A DNA stretch of 46,742 nucleotides, the filler included, from Sphyrna mokarran (lineage: Eukaryota), in the NCBI GenBank assembly GCA_024679065.1. It is 4 parts of 3 records of this genome, joined end to end, with 100 filler letters (N's around TTAATTAATTAA, not from the genome) between each part and the next. Parts side by side here need not be neighbours in the genome. Positions count along the whole stretch, not along the records: positions 12,636 to 27,644 come from JAGIQG010000790.1; 3 more parts are not named here. One strand, 5' to 3'. A program made the position numbers and the translations under genes. Of the stretch, positions 19,336 to 20,665 are shown one piece after another. The notes under the pieces were generated by a model. The model worked only from the letters and a program-made list of their open reading frames with translations. It made no database searches and had not been told where the DNA came from. Positions within the stretch are counted from its first letter, which is position 1. Each line of letters begins with the position of its first letter.

Positions 19336-19385
19336 CGGCTGTGACCCTCACCACCGTCCCGGATCCATCCGCATAATCATATTTA
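19336..19385 (-). CDS. J gene segment, NAR/NAR-TCR type (KYDYADGSGTVVRVTA)
   Basis: 50 nt between a perfect 23-RSS and a phase-1 G|GTAAGT donor; G-strand motif D-G-S-G-T in place of W/F-G-X-G. Confidence 0.92.
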
Positions 19386-19424
19386 CACAGTGACTCCGTC
19401 TTCAATCTCCCCGGTACAAAAACC
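19386..19424 (-). promoter_or_regulatory. J recombination signal sequence, 23-bp spacer
   Basis: Plus strand CACAGTG (19386-19392), 23 nt, ACAAAAACC (19416-19424): perfect consensus. Confidence 0.95.
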
Positions 19425-19736
19425 ACCAATATCCCAATCTGCCGGAAAACCATCACCAGTCATTGAGAAGTGTCCAGTTATTCGGGGGATTTAAAATCAA
19501 TAAATAATATTCAAGGTTTCAACGTCTCTGTCGGTTCAAATTGTAATTTTGTGAGGCCCGATCTCTCAGTAAATGGCCGCAGGAAGGAAATATTCACTTT
19601 ATATATAGCAAAAAATATCAAGGAAAGATGTGAATGGTGGAGATTACAGTAGAAATAATCCCGATCACAGCGATAATATCATCAAACCAATGATTCACTC
19701 TCTGGGTACTGAGTATTGATAGTGTAATTGTGCACA

Positions 19737-19808
19737 GGTATTTGTTCAGCTTCTTTCCACCGTGACCATCCCAAATATTACACAGTGTTACAATTCAGCA
19801 TCAAAACC
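19737..19808 (-). other. D gene segment (19765-19780, minus strand TAATATTTGGGATGGT) flanked by two 12-spacer RSS
   Basis: Plus strand GGTATTTGT-12-CACCGTG [16 nt] CACAGTG-12-ATCAAAACC. Confidence 0.92.
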
Positions 19809-20154
19809 TCGGGGACTGGGTGGGATGTTGGAACATGAATTAAACAGCCCGGAAAGTGGCTCCCAGTTCCGGCTGTGAGCCGAGGATCCCATCTGGTGTC
19901 CGGGTTTGTAACTGGGATCAGTCATTTCCATTCTCAATTCACCGACAACACTCCCAGGAATGACAGTCCCATCCACTCACACTCCGTATTTATAAAACTC
20001 AACATAGCAACGGTGATAATCAGGTCTTATTAAAAATAAACTGTGGCATCAGGAGTGTGAGGGATTGGCGGGTAGTGGGATTGGGGGGCGCGGTGGTGGT
20101 TCAGGGTAGATTAACTCCGGTTTTCCCTTTGGTTCTGTGAGAATCCGCAAAGAA

Positions 20155-20192
20155 AGTTTTTGTATCGCCGGAAGCTGAGGCCCATCACTGTG
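20155..20192 (-). promoter_or_regulatory. V recombination signal sequence, 22-bp spacer (23-class)
   Basis: Minus strand CACAGTG, 22 nt, ACAAAAACT directly after the ...YYCKAKYK codons. Confidence 0.93.
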
Positions 20193-20474
20193 TCTTGTAC
20201 TTGGCTTTACAGTAATAGGTGGCGGCGTCTTCAACTCTCAAATCCCGAATTTCCAGCGAAAATGTATTTCCTGCTTTGTTCACAGAAACAATAAATCTCC
20301 CTCCGCTGGAGATCAGCTCCCTCTCCTTCCCGGGCTGGGTTTGTTTGAAGAACTCGCCGTTTACTAAGCGAACATAATAACCAGAACCATACAAATCACA
20401 AGTGATGGTGAGAGACTCACACTCCTTCTTGGTCACCTCTGCCGGGTTTTGTGTCACTGACTGACTGAAAGATC
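20193..20474 (-). CDS. NAR-type V gene segment exon, most like the N-terminal V of shark NAR-TCR
   Basis: After a tttccag acceptor: (R)SFSQSVTQNPAEVTKKECESLTITCDLYGSGYYVRLVNGEFFKQTQPGKERELISSGGRFIVSVNKAGNTFSLEIRDLRVEDAATYYCKAKYK. Short domain lacking conventional CDR2, VNAR-like ESLTI.C and IS.GGR motifs, and an extra FR1 Cys (KKECES) as described for NAR-TCR V. Open frame. Confidence 0.9.
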
Positions 20475-20622
20475 CTGGAAATTAAACACAGAGAGTTTAA
20501 TGGACCATCAGATCCGAACCACACAACGGGGCTAAAACCCCAAACAGAGTCTGTAATTGGGATGGACTGGGACAGCTTTATATCCAATCCACACAATGTG
20601 GGTTAGTTTGATCGGTACTCAC

Positions 20623-20665
20623 GGGGTAAACAGGCACACAGGGTGAAAACAAGAAGGATTCCCAT
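20623..20665 (-). CDS. Leader exon of the NAR-type V segment (MGILLVFTLCACLP)
   Basis: 43 nt from ATG to a phase-1 C|GTGAGT donor; a 148-nt intron splices in frame to the V exon. Confidence 0.9.

Follow-up and report, generated by a model that had tools for sequence, protein, structure and literature searches.

The analyzed stretch of DNA (the window; 46,742 nucleotides, filler included) is from Sphyrna mokarran, and its positions 12636-27644 correspond to one contig of 15,009 bp (C1427 of assembly G000), while the remaining window is either N or off this contig. We found a leader-V-D-J cassette with all elements on the minus strand of the contig. A CRE-like half site (20696..20700, minus) lies 35 bp upstream of the ATG of the leader exon (20623..20665, minus; 14 codons plus 1 nt, phase 1, GT donor), which is followed by the leader intron (20475..20622, minus; acceptor AG at 20475) and an open NAR-TCR V exon (20193..20474, minus) with a Cys in the a-b loop (FR1; residue 18, at approximately 20419-20421), Phe at the canonical Trp, and a short CDR2 region. 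The V recombination signal sequence (RSS; 20155..20192, minus) has a 22-bp spacer and 1 mismatch. The D core (19765..19780, minus; 16 nt, open in two of three frames) is flanked by a 5' RSS (19781..19808, plus) and a 3' RSS (19737..19764, minus), both with 12-bp spacers and 2 mismatches, and the NAR-TCR J (19336..19385, minus; 50 nt, DGSG motif, phase-1 GT donor at 19335) adjoins an RSS of perfect consensus (19386..19424, plus; 23-bp spacer, 0 mismatches). The gaps between the RSS ends were 346 and 312 bp. These four RSS were the only sites with ≤2 mismatches on the whole contig, and 300 dinucleotide shuffles of its sequence gave a mean of 0.043 such sites, with a maximum of 1. The feature is real, and its anatomy was confirmed as first described in a sequence-only reading of this DNA, i.e., an open leader and V, four near-consensus RSS obeying the 12/23 rule (V-22, 12-D-12, 23-J), segments spaced by about 310 to 350 bp, intact splice sites (GT and AG present, phase 1), an FR1 Cys, Phe for Trp, no conventional CDR2, and DGSG in the J.

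NAR-TCR was reportedly described by Criscitiello in 2006 as a doubly rearranging TCR-delta of cartilaginous fish, and the same reading had placed the V as the N-terminal domain of such a chain. CRE and octamer elements are promoter marks of TCR and Ig genes, respectively, and no octamer was found within 400 bp at the window V promoter, unlike both IgNAR V promoters of the S. mokarran genome. When the V was compared with IgNAR and NAR-TCR sequences, as had been proposed, it was 71% identical to P0012 (a great white gene labelled NARTCRdV in PMC12227049 Table S1) and 45% identical to Triakis IgNAR. It also clustered with NAR-TCR and apart from IgNAR; a quick maximum likelihood tree of 65 rows, which leaves open whether the joined Vs of different orders discussed below form one clade, split 62 NAR-TCR rows from 3 IgNAR rows of the same genome with an SH-aLRT of 100. 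The marks given for NAR-TCR Vs in the available parts of PMC1845163 (leader peptide, a-b loop Cys, no canonical Trp) are all present in the window V, which, like NAR-TCR, is of the NAR type and has its own D and J, with 12/23-compatible RSS. The likeness extends to the paralogues in this genome, where a leaderless supporting V-delta with a CDR1 Cys and a delta constant region are found. The IgNAR clusters of S. mokarran (C994:6.87 and 6.96 Mb) have Vs 71 to 83% identical to Triakis IgNAR, with the canonical Trp and without an a-b loop Cys, an octamer, three D segments, and Ig constant exons. They share with the NAR-TCR family a single-domain V without CDR2, the cluster organization and a contig, but the Trp, the three Ds (the window module has one), the octamer promoter and the Ig constant exons are all missing from the window cassette. 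Membership of an IgNAR cluster, toward which the top single-domain matches of the V among solved structures point (VNARs), is hardly credible and was refuted by the identities of 45% to IgNAR and 71% to NAR-TCR and by the split in the tree. Since sequence, tree, promoter and paralogue anatomy agree, the window cassette is almost certainly a NAR-TCR leader-V-D-J module.

Past the J, the first 1.8 kb of the J intron (17530..19335, minus), which in paralogues runs on to the supporting V-delta, is followed by a breakpoint at 17528..17530, where the homology of the contig to paralogous clusters ends and the NAR-TCR cluster meets, with approximately 2 bp of microhomology, a multicopy tRNA-array repeat (12636..17529; tRNA-Phe at 13833, tRNA-Asn at 14062, and tRNA-Gln at 15578). 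In other copies of this repeat, the corresponding point lies about 50 bp from a tRNA-Thr gene, and the repeat extends over 20 kb or more with no supporting V in it. No supporting V-delta, J-delta or C was found in the 6.7 kb downstream of the J on C1427, where the contig ends; in close paralogues, the supporting V-delta lies approximately 6 kb past the J. The window J intron was 94 to 95% identical to clusters with two Vs and 70 to 77% identical to the stacked type described below, which would place the window copy in the two-V subtype. Its upstream flank was 99% like C1271 in places, suggesting possible gene conversion. A gene at 32456-33230 (minus), in which a short intron separates a single-exon VJ from a C1 exon, was examined as a possible partner but dismissed, being outside the contig and past a spacer of N. 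The VJ exon of this gene contains an in-frame TGA, and the gene resembles the non-rearranging VJ-C1 receptor family.

As the cassette is joined to the tRNA repeat instead of a supporting V-delta, J and C-delta, we consider the window copy to be probably a partial cluster left by duplication, with the breakpoint known from one 15-kb contig. It could also be a normal, complete NAR-TCR unit on a small contig that was chimerically assembled. The small size of the contig, the microhomology, a junction unique among the scored matches, and a similar break in C1307, also a small contig, would all fit this. A chimera of two assembled loci should, however, leave near-identical twins, and none was found for either half of the contig among 40 of the 165 to 1995 candidates scored per search; the best of the scored matches were 91 to 94% for the repeat, 94 to 95% for the J intron, and 97% for the V. 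The partial copy is therefore favored over such a chimera, which is improbable also because clusters truncated beside tRNA arrays occur inside the 12.3-Mb contig C994. In six public sequencing runs (Logan contigs, perhaps of other species or individuals), none of the contigs listed ran across 17528-17530 with 31 bases to either side, and the loose ends continued as ordinary NAR intron, which speaks neither for nor against the junction. Alternatively, the repeat may have inserted into the J intron, with the supporting V, J and C-delta beyond the contig end and the unit working through a longer intron. The contig does end inside the repeat, and repeat copies lie near other miniclusters (C47, C1271, and C994 at 11.9 to 12.0 Mb), but the long stretches without a supporting V in the other copies make an insertion quite improbable, and no contig starting with the missing half of the intron was met in searches that were not aimed at it. 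A cassette moved in front of an Ig constant exon, i.e., an incipient NAR-V/Ig chimera resembling the proposed origin of IgNAR, would be suggested by two other repeat copies that continue in the same orientation into an isolated last C exon of Ig. At the matching place, however, the window agrees with the version of the repeat that lacks this exon, no Ig C exon is present on C1427, and the exon, which stands alone, lies approximately 20 kb further on in the nearest model region; the chance of such a chimera is very remote.

Under the favored reading of a partial cluster, the proposal that this is a rearrangement-competent unit producing an unpaired antigen-binding domain held only in part. The RSS look usable, but the competence of the copy to yield an antigen-binding chain is doubtful, because a NAR-TCR chain needs a downstream supporting V-delta, J and C-delta, and the contig of the window copy, unlike NAR-TCR, has no supporting V. 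The window copy would rearrange without giving a chain in cis, and it may serve as a sequence donor.

Incomplete clusters were also found elsewhere. The C1307 cluster breaks into a region of 84-bp repeats (zinc-finger-like), the cluster at C994:12.11 Mb lacks its TM exon, and that at C994:12.14 Mb has no C within the next 53 kb. Orphan C, connecting-peptide or TM exons were present at C994 11.96, 12.20, and 12.28 Mb and on C1058. More generally, dense tRNA-gene arrays are interleaved with antigen-receptor clusters at approximately 8.9 to 12.2 Mb of C994 and on many small contigs, and the breakpoints often adjoin them.

On its own, the cassette is one more NAR-TCR module, probably stranded, and it is the family around it that matters. 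The V-22/12-D-12/23-J layout was found in 13 NAR-TCR cassettes in the assembly. A leaderless supporting V with a CDR1 Cys and a 23-RSS was present in 11 of these, with one J within approximately 300 to 470 bp, and nine were complete miniclusters, in which the supporting V and its single J are followed by open exons for C, the connecting peptide (with its Cys retained) and TM, all with canonical splice sites. The genome contains 13 C-delta exons, two of which follow a D and five Js (C994 3.87 and 5.36 Mb) and represent ordinary units. The minicluster C domains were 76 to 83% identical to these two ordinary exons and 87 to 100% identical to each other. With the C domain of P0010 as the query, identities were 76 to 82% to the minicluster copies and 25 to 28% to two C exons behind long J arrays, which we read as C-alpha. 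Judged by sequence, then, the minicluster constant domains are C-delta, because they are close to the C exons following a D and five Js and far from the C-alpha-type exons. P0051, a catshark protein with a minicluster-type C (58%), matches by name a gene labelled IgWVTCRD (PMC12227049 Table S1). A Mustelus C domain was 77 to 84% identical to the C exons here (Mustelus versus Cetorhinus, 53%), and among 13 matches, C-bearing models numbered eight in Mustelus, on eight contigs, and one each in catshark and basking shark. The gene models of other sharks are automated, several with CDR3s derived from RSS, and hence give no evidence of expression. Some of the nine miniclusters may be haplotype duplicates, with about six being clearly distinct; three clusters of the stacked type (C47, C180, and C994:10.98 Mb) were 97 to 99% identical, and two other clusters had identical C domains.

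Between 3.07 and 5.36 Mb, C994 has two C-alpha exons accompanied by long J arrays, together with two C-delta units that include a D (3.07, 3.87, 4.38, and 5.36 Mb), and the ordinary alpha/delta locus itself appears to be duplicated. NAR-TCR cassettes without a free D were also noted on this contig (3.40, 3.41, 3.42, and 3.60 Mb), with a V-12 facing a 23-J, and these are likely V-D joined. In another NAR-TCR cassette without a free D, at C994:4.00 Mb, a V-22 faces a 12-J.

The supporting Vs were of two types, in both of which a V-23 faces a J-12 directly. In 7 of the 11, the heptamer at the end of the V is of the D-delta 3' RSS type, and in all five copies that were aligned, the V is followed by a few bases resembling the tail of the D, then by the 3' RSS of the D and the spacer between D and J1 as in the ordinary locus. 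The other four kept the V RSS and have a D remnant without a 5' RSS. These arrangements suggest that the seven supporting Vs are likely an inherited germline V-D coding joint, with a deletion between similar RSS as the alternative. A germline RAG event would have fused V to D-delta and removed the DNA between them, creating a compact unit that was later amplified. The local J RSS of the miniclusters are weak (4 to 5 mismatches in total), which calls for caution; the ordinary J1 is also degenerate. Tandem copies of the 23-RSS were seen behind the supporting V-delta at C994:3.40-3.41 Mb, C47:27.5 kb, and C1271:53.5 kb.

We lean toward the reading that the window cassette is likely a partial NAR-TCR module and that its nine sisters are complete miniclusters, each of which would make its own delta chain. 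RAG would join the V, D and J of the NAR module and, separately, the supporting V to the single local J, and the donor of the NAR J would splice to the next leaderless exon. This family would show that TCR genes exist in Ig-like miniclusters in a shark, where TCR alpha/delta is given as a translocon in the available parts of PMC12227049, and would make visible a route from translocon to cluster, in which a germline V-D join brings a V next to J and C.

Four clusters, in which the supporting V RSS is kept, additionally carry leaderless, J-attached NAR V exons (one, one, one, and four), placed between the rearranging module and the supporting V; the array of four is from one contig only (C1271). 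All seven joined exons are open, lack RSS, and have a phase-1 acceptor and donor. A homologue of the leader intron is present upstream of six of the seven, without an ATG, and the leader donor is changed from GT to AT in six and replaced in the seventh, while it is kept in all 11 other rearranging copies. The kept leader intron points to germline recombination rather than retrotransposition as the origin of the joined exons. Estimates of pN/pS were approximately 0.2 to 0.4 in most divergent pairs and above 1 in two pairs involving the fourth exon. The length of the joined CDR3 and the position of its Cys match Carcharodon P0012 and Cetorhinus P0006 (automated models from a different order), so one old join common to the orders seems likely. 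A germline-joined V of the IgNAR type, with J attached and no RSS, was also noted at C994:7.566 Mb (L139).

Each joined domain has both the a-b loop Cys and a CDR3 Cys. An Ig domain has its a-b loop at the base and its CDR3 at the upper end, so stacked domains bonded head to tail would fit the positions of these Cys residues. In the four clusters, the exon following the NAR J would be a germline-joined NAR V, giving a chain of three or up to six V domains over C-delta, its tip diverse and its stalk fixed. Within the chain, the a-b loop Cys of one domain would pair with the CDR3 Cys of the joined domain beneath it, and the final a-b loop Cys with the CDR1 Cys of the supporting V, so that every Cys would have a partner. 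In the horn shark model P0058, tandem joined-looking domains lack the CDR3 Cys, and thus this Cys is not required for tandem copies. We tentatively propose that, in one shark lineage, germline RAG joining could have given rise to amplified stand-alone delta loci, some of which would encode a rearranged tip above one to four invariant joined NAR domains that form a stalk locked by disulfides, with up to six Vs in total. If true, the number of exon copies would determine how tall the receptor is, and the family would have converged on marsupial TCR-mu and gone beyond it.

Alternatively, splicing might bypass the joined exons, use them singly, or connect them to the upstream leader in a fixed isoform with two Vs. 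The models P0006, P0012, and P0021 link the leader straight to one joined V and the supporting V, and a great white model spanning 8.8 kb, about twice its neighbors, would fit skipping of an unrearranged module. A joined domain at the tip would, however, leave a Cys free, given that the a-b loop and CDR3 Cys are both kept, all acceptors and donors are in phase, and in the model P0001 two joined domains are connected to the supporting V; use of the exons without stacking is therefore rather unlikely. An AlphaFold2 model of P0001 from a 22-row alignment had a pTM of 0.41 and gave no information on stacking, and a joined exon used as the query against proteins of near length matched three short proteins, none of them joined.

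In the available parts of PMC12227049, PMC6795676, PMC5931798, and PMC3457774, NAR-TCR is described as three Ig domains within a translocon locus. The family found here departs from three Ig domains with a translocon C-delta, having 13 C-delta exons and seven extra joined V exons. In contrast to NAR-TCR as published in those parts, the majority of copies come with a J and a C-delta of their own, seven of the supporting Vs are apparently V-D joined, and four clusters add one to four joined NAR Vs. A literature search found no account of NAR-TCR miniclusters that carry a C-delta of their own; it did not reach Criscitiello 2006, nor Venkatesh 2014, Deiss 2019, and Ott 2020/2021, and these later papers may already contain local C-delta copies or joined exons. 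A great white gene, LOC121270133, is labelled "NARTCR V(gj)V(gi)V" (PMC12227049 Table S1) and was matched to P0001 by name and species. As in the stacked clusters, two germline-joined NAR V domains with a CDR3 Cys precede its supporting V, and its label indicates that joined NAR-TCR Vs have already been noticed; in the available parts of that paper, it is a table label undiscussed in the text, with no local C-delta listed.

The layout also resembles that of TCR-mu, which in the available parts of PMC7615758 and PMC3457774 is [V-D-J-Vj-C]n in marsupials and [V1-D-J1-V2-J2-C] in platypus. Going by these sources, clusters in tandem, each with its own C derived from delta, incomplete clusters, a diverse tip domain above a support of low diversity, a germline-joined second V, and a D-less supporting V (as in the platypus second V; PMC7615758) are common to both, and our paralogues have the own delta-derived C and the fixed or D-less second V. 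The likeness is in layout only, however, since the TCR-mu V is VH-like, mammalian and of independent origin, while the shark V is of the NAR type; neither a VH-related V nor the mammalian lineage applies here. As far as these excerpts go, each marsupial cluster has one joined exon, which pairs with V-gamma and whose origin is put down to retrotransposition, while the shark joined exons have kept the leader intron, lie above the supporting V, and can be tandem. TCR-mu was called the only TCR with a germline-joined V in the accessible text of PMC7615758, and a germline V-J join at newt delta has since been reported in that of PMC12698447.

Two further features were noted. The isolated exon for the last C domain of an Ig heavy chain, which includes a secretory tail and is joined to the tRNA repeat, occurs in two places (C1048:22.6-23.0 kb, L089; C994:10.861 Mb, L076) and is 41% identical to IgNAR C5; we take it to be IgM. 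Furthermore, the TM exons of 10 minicluster-type C-delta copies read FSVLM, and those of both ordinary C-delta units read FNVMM. The TM Asn is part of the conserved transmembrane interface of TCRs, and as it is absent from the minicluster TM exons, assembly or signalling may differ.
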